64,000 nucleotides of DNA, taken from assembly GCA_012441205.1 (NCBI GenBank), contig GCA_012441205.1_4705.1. One strand, 5' to 3'. The notes below the pieces were generated by a model, which worked only from the letters and a program-made list of their open reading frames with translations, did not search any database and was not told where the DNA came from. A program made the translations under genes and the position numbers. Positions within the stretch are counted from its first letter, which is position 1, and each line of letters opens with the position of its first letter. The DNA is from a phage. Below are positions 7,321 through 49,364 of the stretch, in pieces.

Positions 7321-7695
7321 TTAATGTTCGTTCCAGATGGCATCTTCCGGTGGAACAATAGGATCTTTCTTCGGCATTGACGGTACTTCATGACGATGCT
7401 TACGGAATTGCCTATCGATAACCTCACGAAGCCGGTACGCATCAACCCATGTTGATTTATTGAACAGCTCCAATGTCACAGTTAATCGTGTTCTTGACAT
7501 TGAATAGCTTTTCTTTGCAATCAAATTGGGATAATTCAGTTGAGCGAACCACGCACGTATTTGTGCTTCGGTAAAAGCGATGCTGTAATAACTAAGTTTA
7601 CCGTCATTAAAATCGTGCGCGTGGGTGTAACGTCCAGCGTAACGCCAGACAAGATGCACATTCAGATCGATCCATGGTGGGGTGGTATCAGCCAT
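7321..7695 (-). CDS. hypothetical protein (124 aa)
   Basis: ORF with GAGGGT SD. Confidence 0.6.
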   Translation of the reverse strand: MADTTPPWIDLNVHLVWRYAGRYTHAHDFNDGKLSYYSIAFTEAQIRAWFAQLNYPNLIAKKSYSMSRTRLTVTLELFNKSTWVDAYRLREVIDRQFRKHRHEVPSMPKKDPIVPPEDAIWNEH

Positions 7696-7704
7696 GTGTT
7701 ACCC

Positions 7705-8274
7705 TCAACGATTCTTCATCACTTTACCCAGGCTTTCGATATTATCCCAAAAGCGATTTTTACTTGGCGCATCGCCGACGATAACCGACATCAAATCACG
7801 ACGTTCGCGACTGATGATGCCTTGTGATTTCCAGATCACCATCGTCCAGCAAGCGGCCAGAACGAACAGATGGTTAATGCTCGGTTTGGTTTGCGCGATG
7901 AACGCAAGCCATGCCCAGATACCGGTGTATACTAGCGTCACTAAAAAGAGCGAGATTGTTGCAACGACAACAACGAAGTTTTGGACAGCGGGTTGATTAG
8001 CGTTATCATGAATAGCGGTAAGATCAGGAAGATTACCTTCAACTGAACTCGTTTCATCGATTTCCAATTCTTCGATTTCTTTTCGTGTGTCAGGAGCTAA
8101 TCCAGCATCATCGAGATGCTTTTTTAACCGCTGTATGCTTAATCGTTGACCGACAGGAATGTTGATGTTGTCGTAACTATTAAGCGCATCAACCAGGGAG
8201 CGTCCATCAACGAGAACCAAGCTCGCGGTACCCATCGTTTGCGGTTTTATTTTGTAAAGGTCTTTTACTTTCAT
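7705..8274 (-). CDS. membrane protein (189 aa, two predicted TM helices)
   Basis: GGAGGTGG SD; hydrophobic segment VVVVATISLFLVTLVYTGIWAWLAFIA. Confidence 0.6.
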   Translation of the reverse strand: MKVKDLYKIKPQTMGTASLVLVDGRSLVDALNSYDNINIPVGQRLSIQRLKKHLDDAGLAPDTRKEIEELEIDETSSVEGNLPDLTAIHDNANQPAVQNFVVVVATISLFLVTLVYTGIWAWLAFIAQTKPSINHLFVLAACWTMVIWKSQGIISRERRDLMSVIVGDAPSKNRFWDNIESLGKVMKNR

Positions 8275-8295
8275 GTAGACACCACCTCCAACGTG

Positions 8296-10908
8296 TTAAG
8301 CGTCCGGCGTAAAATCAAAAGGAATGTCCGTACGAATGATATCATAACGTTTTCCGAGGAAATAAAACTCTTCGGGAACCTGACCGGGAATAATGCTATC
8401 ACCGATGAACTGCGGATACGCCCAGATGTACTGAGTGAGTCCTTCGAACATATCCAGGTTATTTGCGTGGTTACCCATGATACGTTTCCAGAGTTCGCGT
8501 TTATACGGCGTTTTAACATCGAAACCATAAAGCGGTGCAAGATCTTCACCAGGAACAAATCCCAGGTAATAGTGAATCTGACTAACCGGGAAACCAAGCG
8601 TATCTCGCGGAATGGTGATCGCTTGCTCAGCTTTGGTGACATGCGTTTCAATAATCCAGTCGTAGCACTCTGAATAGAACCGATCGAATTTCTCTGGATT
8701 ATACCACGCTTTGGGAAGATTCAGTTTCTCCGTGAACGCATTCGACATGATCGTCGGTAAGAACGGAAGAACACCGGTTTTGATCTGCGTGTATTTCGAT
8801 TTTACCCGGTTAGCCAAATTCCAGCAACTGTATCCTAACTGTTCGTTACAAAACTCAACGTAGAGATCGTAATCACCGCCGGATAATGGGTTGTTGATAT
8901 CACCAATGTCTGCAGCGTATTTGTTGGGATATCGGTTATTGAAAGCCAGTTTGGTTTGGTAATCGTAGATACACGGTTTGTTGTTCGCTGTATTGATCCA
9001 CCACCAGGGTTCACCCACCTGTACACAAATGTCCTGGACATGAGGGTAAATAATATCGGCAAACGCGGTTAACACATCCCCTAACCACGCCATCGCCTGT
9101 TGGTTACATGGAGACAGCAACCAGGACGGTGGTGTATATCCGGTTGCTGCGATGTTTCCTTCCCAATCCTGCTGCGCCCACTCGAACGGGCAGGCTGTAC
9201 TCATCAATTCGTAACTTAAACTGATGGTGACAGAGAAATGGTGTTTTGCAGCATATGCGGCGAAAGCTTCATGCCACGCGATACAGGGTGGATTTAATAC
9301 ATCCGTGGTGTTCACCAGTAACTTACCCGCACTTGGCGTCCAGACAGTATCGTAGAAATGCGACATTCCAACATAATGCACTAATTCATCTTGATACCCC
9401 GCATAAACCAGGTTCTCAAATACACGCTCTGGCGTGATGTTGTAATGGTCATCGTAAGCGGTTATCGCACGAAGTTCGTGTGGTGTACAGTGGTGACGAT
9501 TAACCGTCATTTCCTGATACACCCCATCGATAGGAAGAATCTCGAGGGTTAAACCGAGGTCGATTGGCGTTTCCAGATAGGTCGTTTCAGTCGCACCTTC
9601 CTTATAATGTCGAGAACTCATGCTGAACATCAACGATGCTACCGATTCGAGTTCGATAGGCTCGTCAGCATAGAACCCCGCCATTGCGTCATTGAAATCG
9701 ATCGTTACGATTGCGCTTCTACCGTCTTCAGAGACATCGGTGGCGTATCGGGTTAATGAGATATACTGACGGCTATCGTCTTTGTGTACGACGGTTAAAA
9801 CCGGCGGGTTTTCGGTATCTGCAAAGTTACGCTGATCGCCAGTAAACGTGATCTTCGCTTTAAAGATCAAACCGAATAACGACGTCATGGGATCATACGC
9901 AATACAACCGTGATCCAGCGTATCCGTTGTCCGCCATTCTATCCCGACCAACCCGTTAGCGGTATGGCATCGCATATACGCATTAAGGACCATGTCTTCA
10001 CTGACAACCGCGAAGTTCTCTGTTGACTGACCGTTGATAATCCAATACATCGGTTGCCAGAGGTTACGCGTACCTTTTGCGTAGCGGTAGGTTGGTGCGC
10101 CTTTAGGGTTGCCGTTATTGAGATGGAATACGGCAGTACCTTGATAATGGTCGTTCGTATTAATCGGAACACTGTAAGCGTCACCGAGGTCCGTACGTTC
10201 CACCTTCGTGACCGTTGCGTTTTCAAATAACCCACGCAACGCTGGTAAACCGATATCTTCAGGCGCGTTTTCTCGACGAATCGCATCCGCGATGCGATGG
10301 GCTAAGGCGGGGTAAATAGCTTCACCCTGTTGTAGGTTTGCAAGACCTACAAAGCGATCAGGGTCGATACCAGCAATCAATAACTCAACATCACCCTTCG
10401 TTCTATCGTCGTTAAGATATTTCAGTCCGGTAAGGTCAAGATGCTGAATAAGCGACAACAGGTTGTATTTACGGTTTTCAACAGTTAGTACAAGATCGCC
10501 TGCCCAAACCAAACTTCCCTCATCCGCTGTTACTTTAACGGATTGTCGGCCTGTGGTAGACGTTGTTGTCGTTTTATTTAATTGTCCTTGTAGGAAGTCG
10601 GTTGCGAGGTCAAAGGCAATACCGTAACGGTCAGCGACCGCTTGCATGATTTCACGTAACTGGGTATCTTCTTCAATGATAATCTTGACAGGTATTCCCA
10701 GGAACGCTTTAGCGAGGTCTCGTTTAACCAACGAGACGAATACGGATTTGTAGTATCGGCTTCCATCTTTCCCTTTAAAAAGAATGGAGGTTGTTTCGGG
10801 TGCCGATAGAACACGTGCAAATTCAACATCGTCGAAAGTAAGAGAAAGTCCGTTTTTCTCGTTGACCAATCTTAGTATTTCATTTTGCGCGGTTTCATGT
10901 AACTTCAT
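8296..10908 (-). CDS. receptor-binding protein (tail fibre/spike) with conserved N-terminal anchor domain and large unique C-terminal domain (870 aa)
   Basis: N-terminal 150 aa align with four other proteins (17249..19003, 16563..17090, 22652..23482, 59837..61291); GAGG SD. Confidence 0.7.
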   Translation of the reverse strand: MKLHETAQNEILRLVNEKNGLSLTFDDVEFARVLSAPETTSILFKGKDGSRYYKSVFVSLVKRDLAKAFLGIPVKIIIEEDTQLREIMQAVADRYGIAFDLATDFLQGQLNKTTTTSTTGRQSVKVTADEGSLVWAGDLVLTVENRKYNLLSLIQHLDLTGLKYLNDDRTKGDVELLIAGIDPDRFVGLANLQQGEAIYPALAHRIADAIRRENAPEDIGLPALRGLFENATVTKVERTDLGDAYSVPINTNDHYQGTAVFHLNNGNPKGAPTYRYAKGTRNLWQPMYWIINGQSTENFAVVSEDMVLNAYMRCHTANGLVGIEWRTTDTLDHGCIAYDPMTSLFGLIFKAKITFTGDQRNFADTENPPVLTVVHKDDSRQYISLTRYATDVSEDGRSAIVTIDFNDAMAGFYADEPIELESVASLMFSMSSRHYKEGATETTYLETPIDLGLTLEILPIDGVYQEMTVNRHHCTPHELRAITAYDDHYNITPERVFENLVYAGYQDELVHYVGMSHFYDTVWTPSAGKLLVNTTDVLNPPCIAWHEAFAAYAAKHHFSVTISLSYELMSTACPFEWAQQDWEGNIAATGYTPPSWLLSPCNQQAMAWLGDVLTAFADIIYPHVQDICVQVGEPWWWINTANNKPCIYDYQTKLAFNNRYPNKYAADIGDINNPLSGGDYDLYVEFCNEQLGYSCWNLANRVKSKYTQIKTGVLPFLPTIMSNAFTEKLNLPKAWYNPEKFDRFYSECYDWIIETHVTKAEQAITIPRDTLGFPVSQIHYYLGFVPGEDLAPLYGFDVKTPYKRELWKRIMGNHANNLDMFEGLTQYIWAYPQFIGDSIIPGQVPEEFYFLGKRYDIIRTDIPFDFTPDA

Positions 10909-10930
10909 TAAAAACCTCAGCCCTTTAGAA

Positions 10931-11572
10931 TTAAATGTACTGCTTACCGCCCACGAAGGAAGTTAACCAGTTCCCGCTGACGAGTTGTGATACCCAGCCT
11001 GGAACGGCTCTACCATTCTGGCTCATGATGTTACCACACCAACCAGGGAATCCGGGACGGATGTAATAGAAAGTTAAATTGTAGAGATGGCAATTCCATA
11101 CCGCAACGTTATGTTTACCAGAAACCGCTTTAAAGACAAACGCGACAGGTAACGGAGACGATAACAATTCGGTCACAGGGACGGCTGACCAGTTCGCATT
11201 CGCGTTCCATGGTTGCCAGGTATGGCTGCGCGAGTCGCAATATACGTTACCGTTGTTACCGCGCCCACCCGCATTCCACCACAGCGACGGACTCATGTTC
11301 TTAAGTGAGGTAAATTGCTGCGGTGGAATATTAGGAATAATAACAGGGTTGGTACCTTGCCCATGTTTCTTTTCTTTTGCGTTCACATACCCGCTTATCG
11401 ATTCGAGGTATTTGACACCAGGATAATTATTCTGGACTTGTGTCGCAATATCACGAACATCGAACGTCCAGCAGATCATGGTGTTGTAGTAAGCATCGGT
11501 GTTGTCGTACCATGCGTTACCATCTTGTAAACGTGCGCCACTATTCGGTGTTTTATCTGTGTTTATAGCCAT
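10931..11572 (-). CDS. fibre-associated protein, paralog A (213 aa)
   Basis: C-terminal about 45 aa nearly identical to the protein at 11582..12349; lies between fibre genes. Confidence 0.6.
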   Translation of the reverse strand: MAINTDKTPNSGARLQDGNAWYDNTDAYYNTMICWTFDVRDIATQVQNNYPGVKYLESISGYVNAKEKKHGQGTNPVIIPNIPPQQFTSLKNMSPSLWWNAGGRGNNGNVYCDSRSHTWQPWNANANWSAVPVTELLSSPLPVAFVFKAVSGKHNVAVWNCHLYNLTFYYIRPGFPGWCGNIMSQNGRAVPGWVSQLVSGNWLTSFVGGKQYI

Positions 11573-11581
11573 AGTGTTGTC

Positions 11582-12349
11582 CTATACTGCGATGATTGAG
11601 ATATCGGATGCCGGATGTGTGTTGCCATCAGGTGGTACGTACAGAAACACCCACAGATAAAACAGTAGCTTCTCTAACTTCAATTTAATTGAAGTTAGAT
11701 ATTGTTTACCTCCAACAAACGACGTTAACCAATTACCTGAAACAAGTTGCGATGCCCAGCCAGGCACTGCCCTACCGTTCTGGCTCATCACGTTACCTGC
11801 CCATCCCGGAAAACCAGGTCGGAAAATATATACTTGAATATGTGTTAAAGCGTTATCATTACCACCGCCAACAGCAACGTTACGACTCCCAGATGACGGG
11901 AAATATTCTTTTAAGAACAGAGGATCGGTTGCTAATAAAGATGCGGGCCAAGGGTTCGCGGATGCATCAACATCGAATTCGGTCCATCGCCATTTACGTC
12001 CCGTGTCGAACCATGTCGATGTACCACCACCCCTCACGGCAAGATTGCGCGCATCACGGACATTATAAATTGATTCGATGTTACGCCATCCACCTTTTGC
12101 AGCGTTTGCTGCATAGCAAACCGCATTACCACCATTCTTCTTCTCGTAAACGGTTCGTTTGATATGAACACGGTCGATGAACGCTTCACCGTATTTGTTG
12201 ACGAGCGTTTGTGCGATATCACGAAGATCGTGCATGTGAAAAGCGATGTCTTCGTTATGGAACCATGTTGTCTGGTTCCAGACGGTACCGTTTGGTTCGG
12301 CACACATCGATCGGATATTGTTGCGTTGATTAATCGCGATAAAACCCAT
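11582..12349 (-). CDS. fibre-associated protein, paralog B (about 255 aa)
   Basis: homologous to 10931..11572 along its length; start set at ATG 12349 with GAGG SD (track ORF extends to 12436). Confidence 0.55.
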   Translation of the reverse strand: MGFIAINQRNNIRSMCAEPNGTVWNQTTWFHNEDIAFHMHDLRDIAQTLVNKYGEAFIDRVHIKRTVYEKKNGGNAVCYAANAAKGGWRNIESIYNVRDARNLAVRGGGTSTWFDTGRKWRWTEFDVDASANPWPASLLATDPLFLKEYFPSSGSRNVAVGGGNDNALTHIQVYIFRPGFPGWAGNVMSQNGRAVPGWASQLVSGNWLTSFVGGKQYLTSIKLKLEKLLFYLWVFLYVPPDGNTHPASDISIIAV

Positions 12350-12404
12350 TGTATACCTCGTTCCTATTCTCAAAAAGGAAATTTCATACGATGACGCCAT
12401 AGCA

Positions 12405-12434
12405 GCTCCTCCTTCCCTTACGGGTTGGAGGAGC
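12405..12434 (-). terminator. hairpin element, second copy of the 7279..7312 element
   Basis: reverse complement nearly identical to 7281..7312; no strong U-tract. Confidence 0.4.
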
Positions 12435-12442
12435 ATACTTAA

Positions 12443-12949
12443 TTACTCGCTGATAACCTCAACGGAATTGGGATCAGCGATCATCGCACGGTCAGTAGAA
12501 CAATTGAAGAAGACCATGCCGACACCATCGCCGTTCGAGTTCAGGGTTGAACTTACGTAAGACAGGGTTGGTTTATTCATGCGGTAGAAGCGTTCGCTGG
12601 TTGCGGTATTGAACCCCAGGTCAACGTAGTCTTTCACCGTGGTGTACAACTGTGTGGACTCGAAAACGGTTACCGGAGAGTCGACGGTAAATTGACTACC
12701 TTCGTCTACAACCAGAACTTTATCGTTCCAGATTTCAGTGGTTGAGAACTTCGGTTTCCAATGTTCGAATTCCTGGGTTGCACCCCAGCAAGAATACACA
12801 GCGAGATTGCTGTTCTTCTCAACAGGTTTCAACCCCACCAGTTGTGTCAGGTCTTTATCCAGGTTCGGTAAGCCTTCCAGCGTAGCACACCCACCCAGAG
12901 AAAGTACCATCAACATACCAAGAACGATCGCACAAAGTTTCTTCATCAT
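12443..12949 (-). CDS. lipoprotein (168 aa)
   Basis: signal peptide ending in lipobox LSLGGC; AAGGAAA SD; directly downstream of the long tail fibre gene. Confidence 0.65.
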   Translation of the reverse strand: MMKKLCAIVLGMLMVLSLGGCATLEGLPNLDKDLTQLVGLKPVEKNSNLAVYSCWGATQEFEHWKPKFSTTEIWNDKVLVVDEGSQFTVDSPVTVFESTQLYTTVKDYVDLGFNTATSERFYRMNKPTLSYVSSTLNSNGDGVGMVFFNCSTDRAMIADPNSVEVISE

Positions 12950-12997
12950 TAGATTTCCTTATGTGTTAACGGAAGTGACTTCCATAAGGATTGATGA

Positions 12998-15217
12998 TTA
13001 CTTTTTGAGCGCTTTAAGTTCTTCTTCCATCGCTTCCACTTTTGCCGTAAGCTTCTGTACTTGTTTGATTAATGGAACCACCAAACGTTCGTACATAACA
13101 CCTTCGGCGACGAGTCCGTTAGAAGAAACGATAGCGGGGTCATCTTCTTCGGTTGCATCACGCCAATGCACGTATTGTGGTGCGATCTCACCAACCTCTT
13201 CGGCAATCAACCCATACCAACCCCAATCCTTGTTGTCGGCTTCGCAGGTAGAACGATACCAGACAGGACGCATCTCCAATACTTTATCCGCTTGTTCATC
13301 CGTGATATTCTCGATATCTTTCTTATAGCGCCGCGACGACGTTGAACGAAACACATTGTTGATCCCAGCAGTAGGACTGATATACATATTAGCCCCGCTG
13401 GTTGTAGTGCTAATGTCCCATACCGCAAATCCGCCGTTACTCCCATTTCTCACGACCAACGTATTGGCAATAATATCCAGGTTATTGTTGTAACCGGTTA
13501 ACTGGTTTTCGGTGACAAAATCGGATAAGTTAACGGAGTAGTTCTTGCTGTTATAACAACGACGCCATCCTGGGCTGTTGGTGCTGCCATTATAGTTGTC
13601 GTAGCTATAAATGAACTCGGAGTTGGTTTTCGCACCACTGACGGAAGACGTGGTTGCGGTGGTAACACGGATAGTGTAGTTCGTCATCCCGAAGCTAACG
13701 ACCTCGATAACCGCACCAGCCAGAGGAATAATACCACATTTGGTTTCACTGTCTGGGATGTATGCGCTATCGGCAGCAGCGAAGGAGCAACGTGCGACCC
13801 AGGCACGGGTATTGAATGCACCTTGGTTCTGTAATAACGTAATAAACGATGAGGTCGTAATCGAGCTGTTATTATCACCTGTGATCAACCAGCCGGTTGG
13901 ACATGCGGTAGCACCAACGTTTTTCGCTGTTAGCGTGATGTTCTTCGATCCGTCGAAGGCTACGCCGCTGATGGTACGTGCAGTCTGTAGCTTCGTCGCC
14001 GTTGCCGCGTTCCCTGATGTGTTCTGGTTGCCTGTTGTATTCACACCCGGGATACTATCCTTAGATGTGTAGATCTGTGCCCATTCCGACCATTTCGCAT
14101 CGGTTGAATCACGACGTGAACGTAGGTAAGCTGGAGCGTGTGCACCCGAGGTACCTGACCATCCAATGAGGATTTCACCTTCGCCGACCGATGAAGCGCC
14201 TTTAAGATGAACAACGTTACCGTAGGCTGTAGGGTATCCGTTATTGTACGCTTCATACATCTGGATACCCGTATTGCTGCCCTGGGTCGCATTAGCTAAA
14301 GCGGTAACCCGTCCCTTGGAAGCGAGCACGTTAATGCTAAAGCTAATATCGGTTGTACCGTCAAAGGCGACCCCATTAATCCTCCGCGCTGTTTGGAGTT
14401 TCGTGGCAGTAGCCGCATTACCAGAGGTACTCTGATTGCCTGCTTTGTTCACACCTGGTAAATCAATGTTGGCGGTTCCATCAAAGGACACGCCCCCTAT
14501 GGTTCTCGCCGTCTGAAGTTTTGTTGCTGAACCAGCGTTTCCGGAAGTGCTTTGATTACCCGTCGCGTTGACACCTGGTAGGTTAATGCTAGCAGAACCA
14601 TCAAAAGAAACTCCACCGATCGTAATAGCTGTTCGCAACTTCGTGGCTGTCGCAGCGTTACCCGTCGTATTCTGATTACCAGCTGCATTGACGCCAGGTA
14701 ATGCGATATCAGCTGTGCCATCGAACGCGACACCTCCGATTTTACGGGCGGTTTGTAGCTTGGTTGCTGTAGCAGCATTACCGCTGGTATTTTGCGTACC
14801 GGCTTTATTTACACCAGGAAGATCGATGTTAGCAGAACCATCGAAGCTGACGCCACCTATCGTTCTTGCAGTAGCAAGTTTAGCGGCTGTAGCAGCGACG
14901 TTACCGACTTTTAACCATTCTCCCCATGGACCATCCACACCGTTCCATGATGCCGTTAAACTGCGCACGTATATGTTTCCTGTACGTACTGTGTAACGTT
15001 GTGTTCCACCGAATTGACCGGCTGGGAGCACTTCGATGTAACCTACAGCATTTGCTTCAGGGAAATTGTGGGCAGCATCGGCATTCGTTGATGTTTGTTT
15101 GGACCAAATACCCACAGACGCTTCAACCGGACCGTAGGTATCCAGATTTGCATCGGTGGGGAGCTGTCCTCGAAAACGTCGGAATAATGAAGCCGATAAC
15201 CCCAACGTTGTTTGCAT
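12998..15217 (-). CDS. long tail fibre, distal segment with tandem fibre repeats and C-terminal intramolecular-chaperone (S74-like) domain (739 aa from first ATG)
   Basis: about 40-aa repeats GNAATATKLQTARTIGGVSFDGSANIDLPGVN; C-terminal YKKDIENITDEQADKVLEMRPVWY...GLIAEEVGEIAPQYV; frame stays open upstream of the ATG to 15325. Confidence 0.8.
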   Translation of the reverse strand: MQTTLGLSASLFRRFRGQLPTDANLDTYGPVEASVGIWSKQTSTNADAAHNFPEANAVGYIEVLPAGQFGGTQRYTVRTGNIYVRSLTASWNGVDGPWGEWLKVGNVAATAAKLATARTIGGVSFDGSANIDLPGVNKAGTQNTSGNAATATKLQTARKIGGVAFDGTADIALPGVNAAGNQNTTGNAATATKLRTAITIGGVSFDGSASINLPGVNATGNQSTSGNAGSATKLQTARTIGGVSFDGTANIDLPGVNKAGNQSTSGNAATATKLQTARRINGVAFDGTTDISFSINVLASKGRVTALANATQGSNTGIQMYEAYNNGYPTAYGNVVHLKGASSVGEGEILIGWSGTSGAHAPAYLRSRRDSTDAKWSEWAQIYTSKDSIPGVNTTGNQNTSGNAATATKLQTARTISGVAFDGSKNITLTAKNVGATACPTGWLITGDNNSSITTSSFITLLQNQGAFNTRAWVARCSFAAADSAYIPDSETKCGIIPLAGAVIEVVSFGMTNYTIRVTTATTSSVSGAKTNSEFIYSYDNYNGSTNSPGWRRCYNSKNYSVNLSDFVTENQLTGYNNNLDIIANTLVVRNGSNGGFAVWDISTTTSGANMYISPTAGINNVFRSTSSRRYKKDIENITDEQADKVLEMRPVWYRSTCEADNKDWGWYGLIAEEVGEIAPQYVHWRDATEEDDPAIVSSNGLVAEGVMYERLVVPLIKQVQKLTAKVEAMEEELKALKK
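13936..14908 (-). repeat. in-frame coding repeats of the tail fibre (about 120-nt unit, about 5 tandem copies at 14344..14908 plus one distal copy at 13936..14047)
   Basis: repeats visible in both DNA and translation; copies are diverged. Confidence 0.6.
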
Positions 15218-15281
15218 CCCTTCAATGCTTGACTGCGATAGAAGCGCCCGAGCTGTCGACGTGATGGCCGCTAAAGCAACC

Positions 15282-16556
15282 TTATCCGTACCGGTAAAAA
15301 AACGGGAATTTGTTTGCTGATGTTGCTAAACCTGAAAGGGCGGTCAGTAATGCGTTAAGGGGTTGTTTCCCGGCTAGCGCGTTAGTCACAGTCGTTGCAA
15401 AGTTTGGATCATTACCTAACGCTTGAGCTAACTCGTTAAGCGTATTTAGCGCTTCTGGAGACGAGTCGATCAGCGACGCGATAGCACGCATCACAAATTC
15501 CGTGTTGGCGATCTGTTGACTGCTATCGTTCTCTGCAGCCGTAGGTGCTGCTGGGATACCGGTGAACACAGGGTTATTAAGATCCGCCTTAAGGGCGATG
15601 AGACGTCTAAGTGCTTCAACATCGACTTTCAGGTTTTCCCATCCGACGAGATAACCATCACCGGTTGTGTGATAACGGTTGTACCAAAAATCGCCATTAA
15701 CGCCAAAATAAAATATTCCCTTCTCTTCGTATTGTGGGCCAGAACTGTTCCGTGATGAGCTAATGTATTTTATTTCGATAAGGCCGTTGAATACCACTCC
15801 TGGGATAATTTTGTCGTTTCCAGACGATTGCGATACCTGGTAAGCCCCCGGTGTTGTGGCTCTAACCCAAGTCAAGAATTCTGATGTTCCAGCGTTACCG
15901 CTAAAACGCTTGACGTCGGTAAGTATCGCACCAAAACCGAACATACCGGGTAAAGCAACTCGCCCATCGGTACGGTCACGAATATCTGTTGCAACAACAG
16001 GCAACTGCTTACGAACATCATTAACTGCTTTAGGTGTCGCTGATTTTGTCTCATCGTCGCTATCGATATCACTGCTCAGGATGGTCAGTCCTCGAGTATC
16101 TGTGGTTGCATCAGGAAGAAACGCGTTATCTAACACCTTAAGCTGTATCGCATCCGTGTTATTAACAACAACATACACTTGACAGTTAAGAACGCTGGTT
16201 GCGCCTTCGGTAGGCACAGGCTTGTATCTTTCTGGTGCACTGCATACGGCGACCAGAACACCTTGATTGTCATACAGACCGATCTCACGTACCCAGAACC
16301 CACCTTGACTGGCAGGAATAATACCCTCAACAATAATCCTGGTTGTGTCGTCAACATCAATACGGATGTTGGAAACTTCCCCACGATAAACTTCGTGTAC
16401 AAGTGCTGTTTGGCTAGCATCGGGGGTTGGTGTAGAACCGTTGCCATCACCAACGGCAAAATGCGTAATTCTTAGTTTCTCACCGTCAGGAAGTAATGCT
16501 GCGGTGATACGTTCAGCGCCTTTATCGGTAATGACCGTTTTATAAGTTGTACTCAT
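15282..16556 (-). CDS. tail fibre, N-terminal segment (P2 gpH-like tail-collar fibre domain), ends prematurely at the T7 run (424 aa)
   Basis: MSTTYKTVITDKGAERITAAL...ITHFAVGDGNG...QTALVHEVYRG...GGFWVREIGLYD matches the P2 H / tail-collar fibre N-terminal domain. Confidence 0.85.
   Translation of the reverse strand: MSTTYKTVITDKGAERITAALLPDGEKLRITHFAVGDGNGSTPTPDASQTALVHEVYRGEVSNIRIDVDDTTRIIVEGIIPASQGGFWVREIGLYDNQGVLVAVCSAPERYKPVPTEGATSVLNCQVYVVVNNTDAIQLKVLDNAFLPDATTDTRGLTILSSDIDSDDETKSATPKAVNDVRKQLPVVATDIRDRTDGRVALPGMFGFGAILTDVKRFSGNAGTSEFLTWVRATTPGAYQVSQSSGNDKIIPGVVFNGLIEIKYISSSRNSSGPQYEEKGIFYFGVNGDFWYNRYHTTGDGYLVGWENLKVDVEALRRLIALKADLNNPVFTGIPAAPTAAENDSSQQIANTEFVMRAIASLIDSSPEALNTLNELAQALGNDPNFATTVTNALAGKQPLNALLTALSGLATSANKFPFFYRYG
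15296..15302 (-). other. T7 homopolymer (A7 on plus strand) at the frame change joining the two tail fibre segments
   Basis: removing one T fuses ...ANKFPFF to TGTDKVALAAITSTARALL... in frame. Confidence 0.55.
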
Positions 16557-16562
16557 GGCGTT

Positions 16563-17090
16563 TTATCCCGGGTAAATAGTGATGACATCACCGATGACAG
16601 TTGCCGCACCGACGCAAAGATACGCTGGTGATGTATCACGCTGGTTTGTCACGATAAGATCCAATTGCCCACGCCAAACCATGGAGGTATTCGCGATGGG
16701 AATCGAGATCTTCTTGGAAGTATCGTCACGAAAATTAATGGCGGTAGCAAGGGTAGCTGAATCAAAATCAACGTCGGGTTCAAAGTTGAAACCGTATTGA
16801 TCCGAAATAGCTTGAATAACCGCTCTTATGGTTGTTGTTTCAACCGACTCCAAAACGATTTTTATCGGTATTCCTAGAAATGCTTTCGCTATATCACGCC
16901 GTGTGTAAGTGATAAAACTTTCACCACACCACCTTGTTCCTTCATTTGCTGTGACGATCACTTTTGCCCTGTTAACACCAGAACTCCCATCCAGGGTTAA
17001 AGTGAGATCGGAGTTGCTGAATACACTACTGTTACGTTGGTTTATCAACGTAATAAGTTCGTCTTTCCATGGTGGGTAAAGTGAACGCAT
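16563..17090 (-). CDS. anchor-domain protein, short paralog (175 aa), immediately upstream of the tail fibre gene
   Basis: MRSLYPPWKDELITLINQRN...RRDIAKAFLGIP aligns with the conserved N-terminal domain; start set at ATG 17090 with GGAGGAGGG SD. Confidence 0.65.
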   Translation of the reverse strand: MRSLYPPWKDELITLINQRNSSVFSNSDLTLTLDGSSGVNRAKVIVTANEGTRWCGESFITYTRRDIAKAFLGIPIKIVLESVETTTIRAVIQAISDQYGFNFEPDVDFDSATLATAINFRDDTSKKISIPIANTSMVWRGQLDLIVTNQRDTSPAYLCVGAATVIGDVITIYPG

Positions 17091-17195
17091 AAGCGCACCC
17101 TCCTCCAACAATCGAATTAATATGCAAAAACGCCTCGAAACAGGAGTGCGATTCGAGGCTAACGTAAACAGTCTTAACGACCGCATAAAATTCCG

Positions 17196-17240
17196 CGCAT
17201 ATTGCCCCTCTATCCCGACAAAGCGAGATAGAGGGGAGGA
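17196..17240 (-). terminator. hairpin after CDS 17249..19003
   Basis: 10-bp stem CCCCTCTATC/GATAGAGGGG with 12-nt loop; weak U-tract. Confidence 0.35.
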
Positions 17241-17248
17241 TAATACGA

Positions 17249-19003
17249 TTATGCTGCTACATATCCAGGCCAACGTTCTCTTGGCCAGTTTGTTGCGCCC
17301 TGTCCAACGTTGTCCTTACCAGAAATTACATTACTTACGTCCCAACCACTAAGATCCTGGTTAAATGCGGTGTTGTTACGCATCATGAGGTCGATATTAC
17401 GTAATGATTGGGTATTCCAGCCGGAAATGTCTTGGTTGAATGCCGTGTTGTAAGCAAACATGTTAACAACGTTTTGTAATTTTGAAGTGTTCCAGCCGCT
17501 AATATCGCCATTGAACTGCATGCTCGAGAACATACTGCTAGCATCGATAAGACTATCTGTTTTCCAGTTAACCAGCTTGTTTTCATCAAGTGCGTTGCAA
17601 CTACTGAACATGTAACTCATGTTGTTAACTTTGGATACATCCCATTTATCTAACCCGTTACCAACGAACTCGTAACAAGCTTGGAACATCCAGCTCATGT
17701 CGGTAACCTGGCTCACATTCCATTTGCTAAAGTCGAGGTTGAGTTTTGCGCATCCGGAGAAAGTTTTATACATACTGGTGATACGACTAACATCCCATTC
17801 TTGAATGTTAGGATCATTAAGTATAGATAAGAATTGGAACAATCCGTCTAACGACGTCCATTTCTCTGGAATACGGTTTGGTACTGTACGGAGCGATGAA
17901 AGGTTATTGGTTGACGGAGAGCGGAACATACCGTTATCCCAATTTACGATTTCCGTAATGTTGTACCCACGGATCGTTTGGCGTCCATTACCATTATACA
18001 CAGACCCTGTTGCAGTTATTGTATATTCGTTTGTATCAGCATACGTATGTTCAGCCTGTGTAGGCCACTCACCTATTACATCCCTATTCCCATCACCCCA
18101 ATCGATGGAAATATTTGTCCAACCATCAAGATCTAGGGTAACGGTCCCGCCATTGGTCTTCAGGATGTATTTACCTGCATTGTCGGTATAATAACAAACG
18201 ATCATCGCACCGTACAGGTTACCAATTTGCCAATCATCCTTTTGAGTTACCGCGATATGTGCTGTGCCACGTTGTAGGAAAAGAACCGTACGGTTCTCGT
18301 CAGTCTGTAATGTGGTTAATGCTTGAGCCTTATCATCGTCGGTAATTTCACCAGCTTCCACTAAAGCACTTAACATTCTTTCGAAGTATTCGATGGGTAA
18401 TTGGTGTCCTACAGACATATCAACTGATGGAACAGCGAGATCATCCAATGCGGCGGCAGTTGCAAGCACTAATGATCCATTGGTGGTGTCTGTTTCTTGG
18501 AGGTAATGCAGTCCCGTAATCTGGTACGCTTGAATGATTGTAATCAGATCCAGCGTATCGTTAATGACCTGTACTTGTAAATGTCCAGACCAAACATAGC
18601 TGCTTTCAGCAATCGGTAATTCGACCGACTGAATACCCGATGTTTCAAAACTGATCTTCTTATTAAGATCGGCTTCCAGGAAATCAACCGCGAGGTCGAA
18701 ATTTATACCGTACTTTTCAGCGATGGAATCTATGATGTTCCTGAAAGCAACATCGGTACTTACGATGAATCGTAAAGGGATTCCTGTGAACGCATTAGCA
18801 ATATCTCGACGAACATACGTAAGTGATTGTTCGAAGAAATAGGGACTGTTATCTCCAGGTTTGATGGTTACCTGACACATTTCAGGATGTTCAGCTGGGA
18901 TGAACGATTCAAATTTAACATCGGATTCCTTCAACGAAAGCATGTTCTTCCGGTTTACCAGCGCCAGAAGATCGGCTTTCCATCCAGGATAAACAGTAGA
19001 CAT
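17249..19003 (-). CDS. receptor-binding protein: N-terminal anchor domain, PKD-like motif and C-terminal BspA/DUF285-type repeats (about 584 aa)
   Basis: anchor alignment; ISIDWGDGN...HTYADTNEYTI; repeats WDVSxVTxMxxMFxxCxxFNxDISxW; start set at ATG 19003. Confidence 0.7.
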   Translation of the reverse strand: MSTVYPGWKADLLALVNRKNMLSLKESDVKFESFIPAEHPEMCQVTIKPGDNSPYFFEQSLTYVRRDIANAFTGIPLRFIVSTDVAFRNIIDSIAEKYGINFDLAVDFLEADLNKKISFETSGIQSVELPIAESSYVWSGHLQVQVINDTLDLITIIQAYQITGLHYLQETDTTNGSLVLATAAALDDLAVPSVDMSVGHQLPIEYFERMLSALVEAGEITDDDKAQALTTLQTDENRTVLFLQRGTAHIAVTQKDDWQIGNLYGAMIVCYYTDNAGKYILKTNGGTVTLDLDGWTNISIDWGDGNRDVIGEWPTQAEHTYADTNEYTITATGSVYNGNGRQTIRGYNITEIVNWDNGMFRSPSTNNLSSLRTVPNRIPEKWTSLDGLFQFLSILNDPNIQEWDVSRITSMYKTFSGCAKLNLDFSKWNVSQVTDMSWMFQACYEFVGNGLDKWDVSKVNNMSYMFSSCNALDENKLVNWKTDSLIDASSMFSSMQFNGDISGWNTSKLQNVVNMFAYNTAFNQDISGWNTQSLRNIDLMMRNNTAFNQDLSGWDVSNVISGKDNVGQGATNWPRERWPGYVAA

Positions 19004-19041
19004 AAGCACTCCAATCATGGGGCGGTAACCGCCCCCATCAG

Positions 19042-22000
19042 TTAAATTGTCGGTTTCACGTCGCGTAATAGGGCAATATAATAGCCTAATCCTCGGAGGA
19101 TCTCCCCACTCCAGAAACCAAAATACATTCCGTCTCTGCCGAGATTAGCACTATCTGGTGCAGGACTCCACCCACCATTCATTGCGTCATCAACGGTGTA
19201 GCGGTTGATGTAGTTTTCAACGATTTCATTATAAACGTTAACGGCAACAGGATAGCCTTTATCGTTGGGATGCCCATACAACATCGCTAACGACGCACCC
19301 GCTAACCATAATCCTGCCATATGACCAGTAAAGTCATTAGGGATAAAAGCAGGGGGTTTATCCATCGGAAAATCCGTAGGAGATTGATAAGCGTTTTCCT
19401 GTTGATACGTAAACAAGAAATCGATCCAATGGCTGATGTAAGTGGTTAACTTCTCAGGGACAGCCAAACCATGATCGAGCAGTCCGGCATAAAGCCTCAC
19501 CGCTGAAAAGAAAGCCCTCGGCTGATAACCAGACCATGCTGTCTGATCGCCGAAGTGGTACATCGTAAAATCATTAACTTTCGATCCGCTTGGCGCATCC
19601 CAACGATCCCACACGTACGCACTTGCTCCTGGCCCTAAAACCCCGAATTTCTGATAATACCACTGCTGCGAGTCATACCAGAAATTCACAACATTCTGAA
19701 TCATGAGGTCACGTCGTTCAGCCGATACGTCCATATCCAGGAAGACCCATGGATGTTGGTAGCCGGGATAAGGCTGACCACGCCAGCTGTCGAACGTCGG
19801 TGCGTTAGGGATATAGTTGTTCGAGAACGGAATAATACCCGGAGTATAAGGCAATGGATCCAGACGTTGGTTGACAATCGTACAATCGCCAACACGCAAT
19901 GTGCCCTCTGCCTCAAAGATTGCTTTTAACGTAAACAGCATGGTATATCCGTCATCCGTGGTGTAAGTTGACGGTGGATTGTTGATGGCGTAAAGCTTAA
20001 ATACCCCTTCAGCGATATCGCTGTCATCAGGCAAGAACAGAATTTCAGTTGAACCGTCGCCCCACACAGGTGCGGAAGGTTTAGGGTCAGTATCAGCATG
20101 GCCAGGTTGATACCCTGAGAGCCTCCATCCGTTCGCCGAAAGCGTCAATGTATTTCTTGCTGTGGTGGCCGGTAGCATATACCACCATCGCCAACCATTT
20201 GCATCTTCTACACGAACGTTGTAGTCAATCGACGCGAAATAACTGACCTGCCTTACGATCTGTTTTGCGGTTGGATTGAATTCAAATTGTCCGCCTGCCG
20301 CAGTAAGCTGCGCTTTTAGGAACAACCCATCCCAGGAATCTTCCACTGCTTCGCTGAATTCTGTTGTGATTGCGATATCGTCTTTCCAGCCGACTTTATC
20401 AGCCGACATCAACACCGAACCTGTAACAGCATCACCGGTTGGTATTGAAGCTTCATCAACCGCATCAGCGGGAATCAACGAGCCTATTTTGAAATCCCAT
20501 CCTTTCGGTTCAACGCTGGAAGGTAATACCAGCTTGTACGTTTTGGCTTTCGCTTCGGTTTTGTCCAAAGAAAGCGATAATGAGATCTCAACCGGAATTG
20601 CAACGCCTGTCGTATCTTTACCGCCGCAGGTTACCCGAAGAATTGAATCACGATTGACGCGGAACGGAATGGCCTGCTGTTCAAGGTAAATTTGTGCTGA
20701 AGATGCTTGAATCACGATCCAACCATCGGTATCACGCGTGATTGTGAACGGCGCTTTCGACGGGTATGTATACGTGTAAGCGATACCGTCGGTGTCGTAA
20801 CGATCGGTTCCTTTTACTTGACGGAAGAACTTATCGTTAGCGTCAATACGGGTATATTCTTCAATCGTAAACAAAGACGCCTTGTACGCTTTCTGATAAC
20901 GCTCCTGCTGCGTTAAACGGTATAAGGTGTAGGCTGCTTCACAAAACCACTGTTCAGCGTCTGACGCGTTTCCCATGTAGTCTCTGGTGACTGGTACCTG
21001 GATCGGTCGGTTATGCTGACACTCGTTCGTTTTGATGAGGTATCCGCCATATTCAACAGGAACACGCGGTGCCCATGCAACCAAGTAAGAACCGTTGACG
21101 GATTTATCTTTGAGTACGATAGTACCTACTTCATCGTCAGTACACGCTTCAAGATCGTCCCCGTCAGCACTTACGTAACGTTTTGTGCGTAACGCAACTT
21201 TCTCGATAGGGAACACCGTACCCTTTGTATCCCAGTCAATCGTCCCATCATCATTGGTTTTGAACACATCCGCGTTCAAATTCTGCCAGCCGAGTTTACC
21301 TTCATAGACCTGAACAACAAGATCCATGTATTCCCCGAACGTTGGTGCCCCATGTGTTATTTTCCCGATACCGTTGGTGAATGTAACCGCTGTGTCATGG
21401 AAACCGCCATGTGTTGGGTAATCGTCTTTTGCAAGAGGATAATGGGCCAACACAGGTTGTTTACCATTAACAATCCAGTTAGCGATCCAGCGTGCCGGTG
21501 TATCCGGTGGTTCAAGGCCTGCATAGAACGCTTTTATATACGCATCGAACGATGCCTCTGCTAATGTGAGATAGTGCGCTTTAAGCTTGGTATCATCCGT
21601 TGTATGACTGAATATACCCGCACCCAGAATTAACAACGACTGTCCTTCTGTTGTTGCGTCACCATCCGGTTGTGCTTCTTGTCGTGTTGCTGCAATGAAA
21701 TGACGGTTGTTTACCATGACCCCGCTTTCATTTAACACGTAATGATCGGTTTCTGGGTCGGTAAACGTTCCTGTGTTTCGGGTTAAGAATCTTGCATGGC
21801 CATAACCAACGAAATTAACCGGCGACGCTGTAATCATCCATTTACCGATAAGTTGAGCAACATCATTATAACGCTCGGATGCGGTGATTTGTTTCACGTA
21901 CCAGTCTTTATGGTTAAATGTCCAAAGCAGGAAGTAATAAGTTGTATCGATTTCCATCACTGGGAACGTCGGCGTTAACGGCTCCAGCGTTAAGTAGTTG

Positions 22001-22638
22001 CTCCAGTCAATCTGTCCGCCAACCACCGATGGGGTAATCTCTAATAACTGACACCATTCATAACGGTCCGGTACACTACTGGACGTTGTTGGTAAAGGTA
22101 ACTTGTATACGCCAGTACGATTCAGATCGAACGCTTTTCTAGCCGATCCTAAATCAACATAAATACTCGATGATGCGCTTGCACTATATGCCCCCAAAGC
22201 ACCTAGCGTTGACCGATACATTGAGATGAACAACGTATCTTTCCAGTAAGGGTTATCCTTGGTTGGTTCTAAAGCGATTTGTGCGGAGATGCTGTTCCAT
22301 GTCCCTAACTGGTATGTCGCATTTAAAGATTCTTCTGTGAAATAACTTTCTGCAATCGTCAGATGGAACTGCTCGTTCAATAACGCGAGTGCGGCGCGGC
22401 CAGTAACATCCTCGTTACCGGTTTCTTTTTTCACGATCGCGCCGAACGGAAACAGTGTCGCGAATGACCGTTTTGGTTTATTAACCGTAACCGTCCCTGT
22501 GTAATTTCCAACACCGTCAAGTTTTTGACTATCGCCAACAGCAGTGACTGCGATACCATCAGCCGGGATATTTGTTTTATTTAGTACATTGAGTTGGTCA
22601 ACCAGATCCTGCTTATCGTCAGGTAAGAATGTCGCCAT
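19042..22638 (-). CDS. large tailspike-like protein, possible depolymerase (1198 aa)
   Basis: very long ORF directly downstream of an anchor-only gene; AAGGTGGAG SD; no catalytic motif recognised. Confidence 0.65.
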   Translation of the reverse strand: MATFLPDDKQDLVDQLNVLNKTNIPADGIAVTAVGDSQKLDGVGNYTGTVTVNKPKRSFATLFPFGAIVKKETGNEDVTGRAALALLNEQFHLTIAESYFTEESLNATYQLGTWNSISAQIALEPTKDNPYWKDTLFISMYRSTLGALGAYSASASSSIYVDLGSARKAFDLNRTGVYKLPLPTTSSSVPDRYEWCQLLEITPSVVGGQIDWSNYLTLEPLTPTFPVMEIDTTYYFLLWTFNHKDWYVKQITASERYNDVAQLIGKWMITASPVNFVGYGHARFLTRNTGTFTDPETDHYVLNESGVMVNNRHFIAATRQEAQPDGDATTEGQSLLILGAGIFSHTTDDTKLKAHYLTLAEASFDAYIKAFYAGLEPPDTPARWIANWIVNGKQPVLAHYPLAKDDYPTHGGFHDTAVTFTNGIGKITHGAPTFGEYMDLVVQVYEGKLGWQNLNADVFKTNDDGTIDWDTKGTVFPIEKVALRTKRYVSADGDDLEACTDDEVGTIVLKDKSVNGSYLVAWAPRVPVEYGGYLIKTNECQHNRPIQVPVTRDYMGNASDAEQWFCEAAYTLYRLTQQERYQKAYKASLFTIEEYTRIDANDKFFRQVKGTDRYDTDGIAYTYTYPSKAPFTITRDTDGWIVIQASSAQIYLEQQAIPFRVNRDSILRVTCGGKDTTGVAIPVEISLSLSLDKTEAKAKTYKLVLPSSVEPKGWDFKIGSLIPADAVDEASIPTGDAVTGSVLMSADKVGWKDDIAITTEFSEAVEDSWDGLFLKAQLTAAGGQFEFNPTAKQIVRQVSYFASIDYNVRVEDANGWRWWYMLPATTARNTLTLSANGWRLSGYQPGHADTDPKPSAPVWGDGSTEILFLPDDSDIAEGVFKLYAINNPPSTYTTDDGYTMLFTLKAIFEAEGTLRVGDCTIVNQRLDPLPYTPGIIPFSNNYIPNAPTFDSWRGQPYPGYQHPWVFLDMDVSAERRDLMIQNVVNFWYDSQQWYYQKFGVLGPGASAYVWDRWDAPSGSKVNDFTMYHFGDQTAWSGYQPRAFFSAVRLYAGLLDHGLAVPEKLTTYISHWIDFLFTYQQENAYQSPTDFPMDKPPAFIPNDFTGHMAGLWLAGASLAMLYGHPNDKGYPVAVNVYNEIVENYINRYTVDDAMNGGWSPAPDSANLGRDGMYFGFWSGEILRGLGYYIALLRDVKPTI

Positions 22639-22651
22639 TATTTACTCCACC

Positions 22652-23482
22652 TTAATCGTAACTAAAATAAAGTTTGCTGCTGACGCCGCTATCGGAATGA
22701 GGTTTTAACACCAGAACAGAGCTTCCGAACGACGGAAGTATTGGAACATCTAAATCGTTCGCATCGGCAACTTTTCCATTATAAACGACATTGGCTGTTG
22801 TGATGAGTTCCCAGGCTAAGGTATAACTCATTGAAATCAGCGACGAGGCTAAACGGAATGCATTGTATCCTTCTGGAGTATCTCCAACCGACATCGTACG
22901 TATCGCATCTTGCGGCGGTAAATTTAGCTTGATGCCGTAGGTGCTGAATGTGTGGAAATCCCCTTGTTTACTATCTTCTGGATAATACGAGGTTAGCGGT
23001 TCTCGCACCGTAATCAGTTCGCTAATATCGGTACTTACCGCTTTTCGGGCGAGGAATTGAAACGTACCGTACCACGATGCTGATGTATCAGAATGAACGG
23101 GAACAGCTATGGTTTTCTCGTCGCTTTCAAATTTAACCTGCGACACTAACGCTGAAGAATCAAAGATCGTTAAATCGATCTTCAACCCATACTTCTTAAA
23201 CAGCTGCGTTAAGCAGTCTGCTATCGTCGTCTTATCAGCAACGACAATAAAAGGTTGGTGTTTGATAAAGAGCTTATTAATGTCTCGACGTTGAAGATAA
23301 ACCTGTACGGGGTCTTCGATATAGTAAGCCGATTGTGGTGCGGGGACTATAGAAAGGCGTAACCGACCTGATGCACCATACCAGGCTGGCGTTAACGTAA
23401 CGTCTGACAGAGACAACGGGTGCTGGAGATAGGCGTTTATTTTAGATAACACTTCCTCCTGCCATGATGCTTCAGGATACAT
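22652..23482 (-). CDS. anchor-domain protein, divergent paralog (276 aa); first gene of the fibre operon
   Basis: W..EVL..IN...LSLSDVTL...YYIEDPVQVYLQRRDINKLF...YGLKIDL aligns with the conserved anchor domain; GAGG SD. Confidence 0.65.
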   Translation of the reverse strand: MYPEASWQEEVLSKINAYLQHPLSLSDVTLTPAWYGASGRLRLSIVPAPQSAYYIEDPVQVYLQRRDINKLFIKHQPFIVVADKTTIADCLTQLFKKYGLKIDLTIFDSSALVSQVKFESDEKTIAVPVHSDTSASWYGTFQFLARKAVSTDISELITVREPLTSYYPEDSKQGDFHTFSTYGIKLNLPPQDAIRTMSVGDTPEGYNAFRLASSLISMSYTLAWELITTANVVYNGKVADANDLDVPILPSFGSSVLVLKPHSDSGVSSKLYFSYD

Positions 23483-23540: not shown

Positions 23541-23606
23541 CAAAAAAAAAAAAAAAAACGAAAAAATAGGAAAACGGTGTTCATCCTTTTTAGGGATGAA
23601 CACCGC
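23541..23606 (-). terminator. intrinsic terminator after CDS 23626..24201
   Basis: 11-bp stem GGTGTTCATCC/GGATGAACACC followed on minus strand by a T-rich tract including T17. Confidence 0.6.
23542..23558. repeat. A17 homopolymer (T17 on minus strand)
   Basis: read directly. Confidence 0.9.
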
Positions 23607-48372: not shown

Positions 48373-49257
48373 TCAATAACGACCGTAGCGTTCCTCGAGC
48401 CGTTTTGGTTTTCTCAGAAGGCTATCTTTAAGTGGTACGACGTCGATATCAACACTCTCTGAGTAATAGCCGTTAGAACTACCATACCAACGGATAACAA
48501 CACAACCCTTTGCAGTACGGATATGGTAAAATGTCCATTGTATACGTTCGCTGTAATAACCGTAGTTATCGGTTCTTTCCTCGGTTCTTTCTTCAGCACT
48601 GAGTATCTTTTCACCGATGATATCATTAATATCGCCGTCAATGTCTTCAAGATACACCTCTTCGCAGCAATCCTGCTGATGACAGAATTCGACAACGTTT
48701 CCATCACCACGATAGAAAAGAAGGGCGATACCGTTTCGTAATTGCTCGCTCGTTACATCAGACACACAATGCAAACTTTTATCGTCGGTAATCACCAAGA
48801 CGTTGTTGATTACATGTCCGGCAAGCGCTCCGATCTTATTTACCGTGATAATCGGACGAACCGGTTCAGATTGAACGATAGGAATACGGACACAACCAAT
48901 TAAAGCCATCCGTCCTTTCTTTGGTCTAACCGCAAGGTAAGGTGATTTTCTTGGGTGGTTATGCAGACGTATTTCTAATTCGTCAAATTTAATCCCGTAT
49001 ATACCTAAGAAACGATCGAACAACCGATGAAACTCATCTGTTGCTTCTTCCAACGTTATGGTGTCTACCGTGAGTTTATGTCCCCTGAACACCCGGGTTA
49101 TATCGATAACGTCCAGTGTTTTAAAATGTATTTCCGTAAGGGGGTGATTTGTATTTTCCAGGTAAGTAATTGTTCTTTGAACCACGATTTTAGGTTGCGC
49201 ACCTTTAAAACGTTTCAGGTATTTAACACGATAGCGTGTATGATCTGATGTTAACAT
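48373..49257 (-). CDS. hypothetical protein (about 294 aa)
   Basis: track ORF start lies inside an upstream terminator hairpin; ATG at 49257 has GGAGAGGAG SD. Confidence 0.55.
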   Translation of the reverse strand: MLTSDHTRYRVKYLKRFKGAQPKIVVQRTITYLENTNHPLTEIHFKTLDVIDITRVFRGHKLTVDTITLEEATDEFHRLFDRFLGIYGIKFDELEIRLHNHPRKSPYLAVRPKKGRMALIGCVRIPIVQSEPVRPIITVNKIGALAGHVINNVLVITDDKSLHCVSDVTSEQLRNGIALLFYRGDGNVVEFCHQQDCCEEVYLEDIDGDINDIIGEKILSAEERTEERTDNYGYYSERIQWTFYHIRTAKGCVVIRWYGSSNGYYSESVDIDVVPLKDSLLRKPKRLEERYGRY

Positions 49258-49353: not shown

Positions 49354-49364
49354 CATTAATCAGC

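Follow-up and report, generated by a model that had tools for sequence, protein, structure and literature searches.

What joins five proteins encoded in a 64,000-nucleotide (nt) stretch of phage DNA (NCBI GenBank assembly GCA_012441205.1, contig GCA_012441205.1_4705.1), and would it make them parts of one host-recognition apparatus? This stretch, called the window below, had first been read from its letters alone. The sequence-only reading had pointed to an N-terminal domain (NTD) of about 150 amino acids (aa) common to four minus-strand proteins of the block 8296-23482 and to one plus-strand protein outside it, and it had proposed a branched tail-fibre apparatus carrying several receptor specificities. 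The shared domain is confirmed here. It is that of Pfam family PF25613 (DUF7941), of which the window, as judged by homology, encodes six members. In one of them, the distal part has been exchanged relative to a closely related phage. The family, its architecture and a proposed mechanism have already been published (in a preprint, and the Pfam family exists); new here are an extra paralogue and the cassette swap.

Members and fold of the DUF7941 family

On DNA identity, the window is a close relative of the chimallivirus Goslar, an Escherichia phage that belongs to the nucleus-forming jumbo phages of the Chimalliviridae. The block 8296-23482 is 93.6% identical to Goslar over 75% of its length, and a finer blastn comparison gave 95-97% over most genes; for the window overall, the identity is 93.6-96%. 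Orthologues were assigned by position and identity; percentages in the following lines are amino acid identities to the Goslar orthologue, and CTD denotes the C-terminal domain of the DUF7941 module.

A, 22652-23482, minus strand: 276 aa, stand-alone complete DUF7941 protein with a diverged linker; gp93 orthologue (95.3%)
F, 19042-22638, minus strand: 1198 aa, diverged DUF7941 NTD at residues 1-144 (nt 22207-22638); gp92 orthologue (97.6%)
B, 17249-19003, minus strand: 584 aa, DUF7941 at residues 1-275, PKD-like segment at ~286-338, DUF285/BspA-type repeats at 383-560
C, 16563-17090, minus strand: 175 aa, NTD only, followed by a 23-aa tail; gp91 orthologue (85.1%)
D, 8296-10908, minus strand: 870 aa, complete DUF7941 at residues 1-277 (nt 10078-10908); gp86 orthologue (99.1%)
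D, distal part: NCTSP_N at residues 285-450 and TIM barrel at residues 476-837 (nt 8398-9483), of the phage N4 gp64/gp65 type
E, 59837-61291, plus strand: 484 aa, complete DUF7941, PKD-like segment and DUF285 repeats; gp161 orthologue (61.2% overall)

The five open reading frames (ORFs) A to E are present at these positions, and chance is excluded as the source of their similarity by BLASTP, Pfam and hidden Markov model (HMM) results. The pairwise BLASTP E values range from 1e-7 to 2e-119 (A-E 2e-14, A-C 8e-12, A-B 1e-7, B-E 2e-119, B-D 1e-34, B-C 2e-25, C-E 9e-30, C-D 4e-22, D-E 1e-40), A-D being the sole weak pair at 0.025. All five proteins score above the 27-bit gathering score of PF25613, with 38.3 bits for A (E 1.4e-9, residues 56-275), 76.7 for B (E 2.7e-21), 62.1 for C (E 7.9e-17), 153.1 for D (E 1.4e-44) and 89.4 for E. 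They also match phrog_1037 and phrog_2935, both annotated 'virion structural protein' (for A, phrog_1037 at E 1.9e-11). An HMM built from A to E recovers only those five among the 320 six-frame ORFs of the window. The motifs by which the domain had first been described are found in the multiple alignment of A to E, where the invariant residues are, in E numbering, N16, D27, R66, D67, F72, Y98, G99, F108, L113, S135, W138 and G140.

The extent of the homology had been underestimated. HMM alignment showed that the ~150 aa are merely the NTD of a module of ~275 aa, which continues with a linker and a CTD of ~95 aa. A, B, D and E have the whole of this module, with the conserved linker motif L-x3-I-x4-L-x-G-L-x-Y. 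The linker and CTD are absent from C, which has the same length as Goslar gp91, and undetectable in F.

With the NTD alignment as query, HMMER was run exhaustively against 1.84 billion representatives and gave 376 family clusters at E <= 0.001; the best 150 of these served to rebuild a broadened HMM and profile. Among the 97 family representatives of at least 210 aa, 95 match DUF7941, 12 carry DUF285, one a GP38 adhesin domain and one a BspA leucine-rich repeat (LRR). In the window, a weak HMM match at 48373-49356 (E 0.14) was rejected as a seventh member, this ORF encoding a DUF7448 protein.

The sixth member, F, had been overlooked, having been taken for a separately encoded 1198-aa spike devoid of an anchor. 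In fact, F has its own DUF7941 NTD. The match to PF25613 at residues 45-142 is in register, albeit below threshold (19.3 bits, E 8.6e-4), and the HMM from the five paralogues alone missed F, for which the 150-representative profile was needed. The broadened HMM matches residues 8-139 (E 2.5e-8), and hhalign aligns residues 1-144 of F with the family alignment at a probability of 95.4% (E 1.7e-8). An AlphaFold 2 (AF2) model of residues 1-300 has per-10-residue predicted local distance difference test (pLDDT) values of 76-96, mostly ~90, for residues 1-140, and its helices and strands follow the same order as in E. The sole significant match of the F model in a Foldseek search of the PDB is 9xqd_0, phage phiKZ gp127, with E 1.6e-4 and a target-normalised TM-score of 0.57. 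The body of F, residues 279-1190, matches phrog_2871, 'tail protein' (E 1.5e-296); it has no Pfam family, and a phmmer search of PDB sequences with F returned nothing. The presence of an NTD in F raises the number of members in the window to six and implies that A is not simply the detachable anchor of F.

The fold of the module was examined with E. The AF2 model of its residues 1-285 (pLDDT 90, predicted TM-score (pTM) 0.68) comprises an alpha/beta NTD (1-150), the linker (150-178) and a CTD of three helices and a sheet (179-275). Foldseek found one significant match to it in the PDB, again 9xqd_0 (E 1.7e-6, target-normalised TM-score 0.62), that is, gp127 of the outer peripheral baseplate of phiKZ. 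By sequence, the 150-sequence profile matches PHIKZ127 with E 9.6e-16 and finds only that protein in the PDB, which the five-sequence profile failed to reach. Among predicted viral structures (BFVD), the E model has 74 matches, and all the named ones come from phiKZ-like jumbo phages.

Exchange of the distal parts

The main new point is a cassette swap in E, the gp161 orthologue. Identity to gp161 is 97.3% in the NTD and 93.3% in the linker; it is 33% in the CTD, 37% in the PKD-like segment and 48% in the DUF285 repeats. At the DNA level, homology of 96.7% ends at 60384 and resumes at 61259, ~10 codons before the stop codon (blastn). The NTD and linker are encoded by nt 59837-60384, and the exchanged cassette, 60385-61258 (residues ~183-474), with identities of 33-48%, starts cleanly just past them. 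A constant NTD combined with an exchangeable distal cassette is the pattern expected of an anchor that bears a receptor-binding part. Goslar-like phages provide an allelic series of gp161 (P0001, P0003, P0004 and P0005), in which the NTD is 92-96% identical and the distal parts vary: P0001 and P0003 (276 aa) end after the CTD, and P0005 carries another DUF285 part. For two database entries related to E, the start lies within the linker ('MITIIKK...'), a hint that in some assemblies the gene is split or frameshifted.

B is the extra paralogue. It lies in a clean 1.75-kb insertion relative to Goslar, 17261-19007, between the gp91 and gp92 orthologues, and has no Goslar counterpart. An exact-sequence look-up of B, from either of its two possible start codons, returned no record, and an 82%-identical relative (P0009) is present in public data. 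There is an alternative upstream ATG at 19018; the start at 19003 agrees with the alignment of the paralogues and with the start of P0009. In B, Pfam recognises the DUF285 repeats (E 1.3e-44), and the PKD match is below threshold (E 0.009). Both B and E have such a weak PKD-like segment (E ~0.01) followed by DUF285/BspA-type repeats, and their distal parts are 36-40% identical to each other. The claim that the distal parts are unrelated does not hold for this pair.

The family and its B- and E-type cargo also occur outside the chimalliviruses. DUF285 is a surface-protein repeat of Mycoplasma and Spiroplasma as well. One representative (P0065), a lipoprotein of the Mollicutes type, has a lipobox signal together with six partial NTD repeats, and DUF7941 is hence not strictly chimalliviral. 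Spaid-like proteins of Spiroplasma have also been reported to carry DUF7941 (PMC13375240).

The distal part of D had been described as a unique large domain. Instead, it belongs to the sheath family of phage N4 gp64/gp65, as indicated by matches to PF23844 (E 1.3e-10) and PF23845 (E 3.9e-85) and, in the PDB, to 9lc0_M (N4 Gp64, E 2.4e-30) and 9lc0_I (E 5e-7). N4 gp65 is the protein that binds the receptor NfrA.

Proposed attachment at the baseplate

The family was reported in April 2026 in a study of Goslar by cryo-electron microscopy and quantitative mass spectrometry (Basu et al. 2026, bioRxiv 10.64898/2026.04.21.720040). Ten Goslar proteins belong to it (gp22, gp23, gp31, gp33, gp34, gp86, gp91, gp92, gp93 and gp161). 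The module was described as NTD, linker and CTD, gp23 being among the members without a CTD, and AlphaFold 3 predicted docking between successive subunits, with the linker and CTD of one bound to the NTD of the following one. Purified gp22 formed filaments visible by negative stain, and the adjacent phiKZ proteins gp127 and gp126 were predicted to form a heterodimer. A 'fibre cloud' at the peripheral baseplate was proposed to recognise the host (all Basu et al. 2026).

The same study detected the Goslar orthologues of our proteins, gp86, gp91, gp92, gp93 and gp161, in purified virions by mass spectrometry (Basu et al. 2026, Table S4). The estimated copy numbers per virion are ~111 for gp161, 4.9 for gp92, 4.8 for gp93 and 4.5 for gp86 (range 3-8 for the latter three), and 1.2 for gp91; those of gp23, gp22 and the tail fibre gp90 are ~2140, ~580 and ~43, respectively (Basu et al. 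2026, Table S4). For the Goslar orthologues, this settles the matter in favour of virion association, though only marginally so for gp91; B has no Goslar orthologue. Goslar gp85, whose gene corresponds to 7705-8274 of the window, gp86, gp92 and gp93 are all present at 4.5-4.9 copies, near six, which hints that two adjacent-gene pairs, gp93-gp92 and gp86-gp85, each occur once per baseplate lobe.

The reading that we consider probable is that the six proteins are NTD-anchored host-recognition proteins at the periphery of the baseplate, attached directly or head to tail and carrying exchangeable cargo. We infer that the NTD would be the plug by which each of them attaches to the baseplate rim, either directly, as gp127 does on gp139 in phiKZ, or onto the linker and CTD of the preceding DUF7941 subunit. 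The cargo would point outward and bind or degrade structures of the host surface; it would consist of an N4-sheath-type TIM barrel in D, PKD-like segments and DUF285/BspA repeats in B and E, and a large tail-protein body in F. Devoid of the linker and CTD, C and F could only be accepted by such a chain and would terminate it. In evolution, the NTD and linker would stay constant and the distal parts would be exchanged as cassettes.

A beads-on-a-string assembly finds indirect support among the 150 representatives, 13 of which have more than one NTD-matching stretch. About eight of those 13 contain two to three complete tandem NTDs with a period of ~170 aa, which is compatible with such an assembly. 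The tandem-NTD proteins are metagenomic (P0045, P0056, P0104, P0102, P0147, P0128, P0064 and P0076), and P0156 also has two N-terminal NTDs; they resemble the proposed head-to-tail chain in a naturally covalent form. In P0045, P0056 and P0104, the linker motif immediately precedes the next NTD. Arrays of separate genes are found as well. Salmonella phage pSal-SNUABM-04 has 11 DUF7941 ORFs in 15 kb (7451-22297), eight of them consecutive, in an array that is much larger than that of Goslar and lies directly downstream of a putative exopolysaccharide (EPS) depolymerase gene. In Serratia phage 2050HW, three DUF7941 ORFs follow one another.

Several points weigh against this reading. The peripheral baseplate of Goslar is unresolved, its map contains no DUF7941 density, and polymerisation has been shown for gp22 only (Basu et al. 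2026). The ~5 copies of gp86, gp92 and gp93 fit fixed six-fold sites better than long filaments, and gp91, at ~1 copy per virion, is perhaps no more than marginally structural. DUF7941 sequences were part of the alignment from which F was modelled, and the fold match of that model is therefore not fully independent of the sequence evidence; word-indexed homologue searches gave five matches for the NTD of E and two for the N-terminus of F, too few for an independent F alignment. Finally, the CTD is part of what was swapped in E, which is unexpected if it has to dock on a conserved partner NTD.

The copy numbers lead to the foremost alternative, which we regard as possible, if on the whole rather unlikely: the low-copy proteins D, F and A would each occupy one position per baseplate lobe, six per virion, with the NTD on the end of the gp32 spoke, as for phiKZ gp127 on gp139, or held by one DUF7941 partner, and only the abundant small paralogues encoded outside the window would polymerise. 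The 4.5-4.9 copies of gp86, gp92 and gp93, the single gp127 per star lobe of phiKZ and the lack of the donor linker and CTD in F and C are all in line with fixed sites. The ~111 copies of gp161, in contrast, are too many for six sites, label-free quantification is imprecise for proteins of low abundance, and in the preprint the pairs predicted by AlphaFold 3 point to a network of contacts between DUF7941 units.

A classical branched tail-fibre apparatus, in which A and C would be stand-alone adaptors carrying F and a P2-type fibre, respectively, appears improbable. The fibre in question is encoded by the following gene:

Tail-fibre gene, 12998-16556, minus strand: counterpart of Goslar gp90, in two ORFs, 15282-16556 (424 aa) and 12998-15217 (739 aa)

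The fibre lies outside the DUF7941 family. Its N-terminus is of the P2 gpH type (PF12571, E 2.2e-42), and it has collagen-like repeats (PF03406) and a C-terminal S74 intramolecular chaperone (PF13884). The ORF 15282-16556, first read as a P2 gpH-like fibre encoded on its own, makes up the front half of one gp90-like gene, which a T7 run at 15296-15302 (T4 in Goslar) interrupts with a +1 frameshift. Only when one T of this run is removed is the gene continuous, as an ORF of 1185 aa collinear with residues 1-852 of gp90; the T7 run may reflect an error of sequencing, a genuine inactivating mutation or a site of slippage. C and the gene for its supposed partner are adjacent, and C and the fibre N-terminus are both ~85% identical to Goslar between flanking genes that are 96-99% identical. 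We rejected this common divergence as a sign of functional coupling, since a single replaced block explains it: the segment 12986-19007, from the fibre to B, looks from its pattern of identity as though it had been replaced as a whole relative to Goslar, with the fibre repeats being mosaic and B, which is absent from Goslar, having come with it. C is moreover a poor candidate for a fibre adaptor because gp91 is present at ~1.2 copies and gp90 at ~43, and because C lacks the linker and CTD of the proposed donor interface.

The pairing of A with F has fared better. Their genes are adjacent, gp93 and gp92 are equimolar (4.8 and 4.9 copies), which fits a 1:1 complex, and the neighbours gp127 and gp126 of phiKZ are predicted to form such a heterodimer; together, these points make an A-F heterodimer plausible, by analogy with phiKZ. 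However, F has its own NTD, and A would not be its sole anchor: their binding would be the docking of one DUF7941 unit on another, which retains part of the adaptor idea. In addition, domains of the T4 gp10-like adaptor or branching type were not found by Pfam and PHROG searches with the window proteins or by Foldseek with the E model against the PDB. What remains of the branched apparatus with several specificities is a conserved anchor on diverse, host-recognition-like cargo in virion proteins; the classical branched trimeric fibre does not, and the published Goslar model is one of head-to-tail DUF7941 filaments at the peripheral baseplate.

The inclusion of the CTD in the cassette of E might mean instead that the constant unit is the NTD and linker only, the CTD travelling with the cassette as a partner-selecting element rather than as a generic polymerisation surface. 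We think it unlikely that the proteins form the ordered, programmable heteropolymers that would follow. If they did, A would dock specifically on F, one pair per lobe, B or E would cap or branch filaments, and with the swap of a cassette a protein would acquire another receptor specificity as well as another place in the assembly.

Lastly, we give very little credence to the idea that A to F belong to the interior of the virion, are ejected from it or co-purify as contaminants, with another role for the shared domain: the Goslar preparation also held non-virion assemblies (chimallin and PhuZ), gp91 amounts to ~1 copy and the baseplate map shows no DUF7941 density, but the gp127 NTD has been modelled in phiKZ baseplate density (PDB 9xqd; PMC13250141), the cargo domains resemble adhesins or glycan enzymes, the genes share one minus-strand block with the tail fibre, and cassette swapping is typical of receptor-binding proteins. 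Anchoring through the NTD at the baseplate periphery, directly or in chains, remains our preferred reading.

Surrounding genes and known systems

The segment 7321-23482 is entirely minus-strand. Apart from the family members and the tail fibre, it and the rest of the window contain the following features of note:

23574-23606, minus strand: strong terminator-like hairpin immediately upstream of A, with a 13-bp stem and then a T-rich tail
12443-12949, minus strand: gp88 orthologue (97.6%), inside the cluster, not a DUF7941 protein; phrog_9559, E 2.4e-21
11582-12436, minus strand: 284-aa ORF without Goslar counterpart
56255-56737, minus strand: 160-aa protein, probably the gp158 orthologue by position and length

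The hairpin marks the beginning of the minus-strand block, and the same palindrome is kept in Goslar. A scan for sigma-70 promoters was uninformative (19 sites vs 33 expected); chimalliviruses transcribe with RNA polymerases of their own. The 284-aa ORF has no Pfam or PHROG match and is a 36%-identical paralogue of the adjoining gp87 orthologue (10931-11572). No Pfam match was found for the putative gp158 orthologue. In Goslar, gp87 is present at ~19 copies per virion and gp158, a high-copy virion protein of unknown function, at ~926 (Basu et al. 2026, Table S4); gp88 is among the most abundant of the unmodelled virion proteins (~737 copies; Basu et al. 2026).

The principal host-recognition apparatus of nucleus-forming jumbo phages may consist of DUF7941 proteins. 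These phages escape many bacterial defences and hence attract attention for phage therapy. Recognition of the family dates only from 2026, and its function is for the most part predicted. To a specialist, the feature itself would come as no surprise. The natural variation found here, namely the extra DUF7941-DUF285 paralogue B and the bounded swap in E, the orthologue of the abundant gp161, is useful for experiments and makes the model testable.

Among known systems, the closest is Goslar, whose DUF7941 family resembles that of the window in its NTD/linker/CTD architecture, cargo types, gene order and Pfam family. The window phage differs by the presence of B between the gp91 and gp92 orthologues, the exchanged distal cassette of the gp161 orthologue, an additional gp87 paralogue and a fibre with an S74 chaperone at its C-terminus, where Goslar has the separate assembly protein gp89.

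Branched tailspike systems of the CBA120, G7C and PhiK64-1 type have T4 gp10-like adaptor XD domains and trimeric spikes. They likewise place several receptor-binding proteins on one virion by means of conserved N-terminal modules; in contrast with their gp10-like XD trimeric spikes, DUF7941 proteins are proposed to polymerise head to tail. The N4 sheath subunits gp64/gp65 (PDB 9lc0 and 9yf4) belong to the same families as residues 285-837 of D. Unlike them, D is fused to a DUF7941 module and is encoded by a contractile-tailed jumbo phage, in which an N4-type sheath is impossible.

Two sets of phiKZ proteins invite comparison. The fibre paralogues gp131-gp135 follow a similar design, with a conserved N-terminal segment that docks on the baseplate, divergent distal domains and clustered genes (PMC13250141). 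Their family is unrelated; PHIKZ127 was the sole PDB protein reached by the DUF7941 profile. Their N-termini form a six-helix bundle in a hetero-hexamer (PMC13250141). phiKZ gp127, in contrast, has the same NTD fold (residues 1-150) as the window proteins, with which it shares 10-22% sequence identity, and it differs from them in having no distal cargo domain. It is present at one copy per star lobe, where it terminates a band of five gp139 dimers (PMC13250141), and of all members it alone has been placed by experiment, at the tip of the gp139 spoke.

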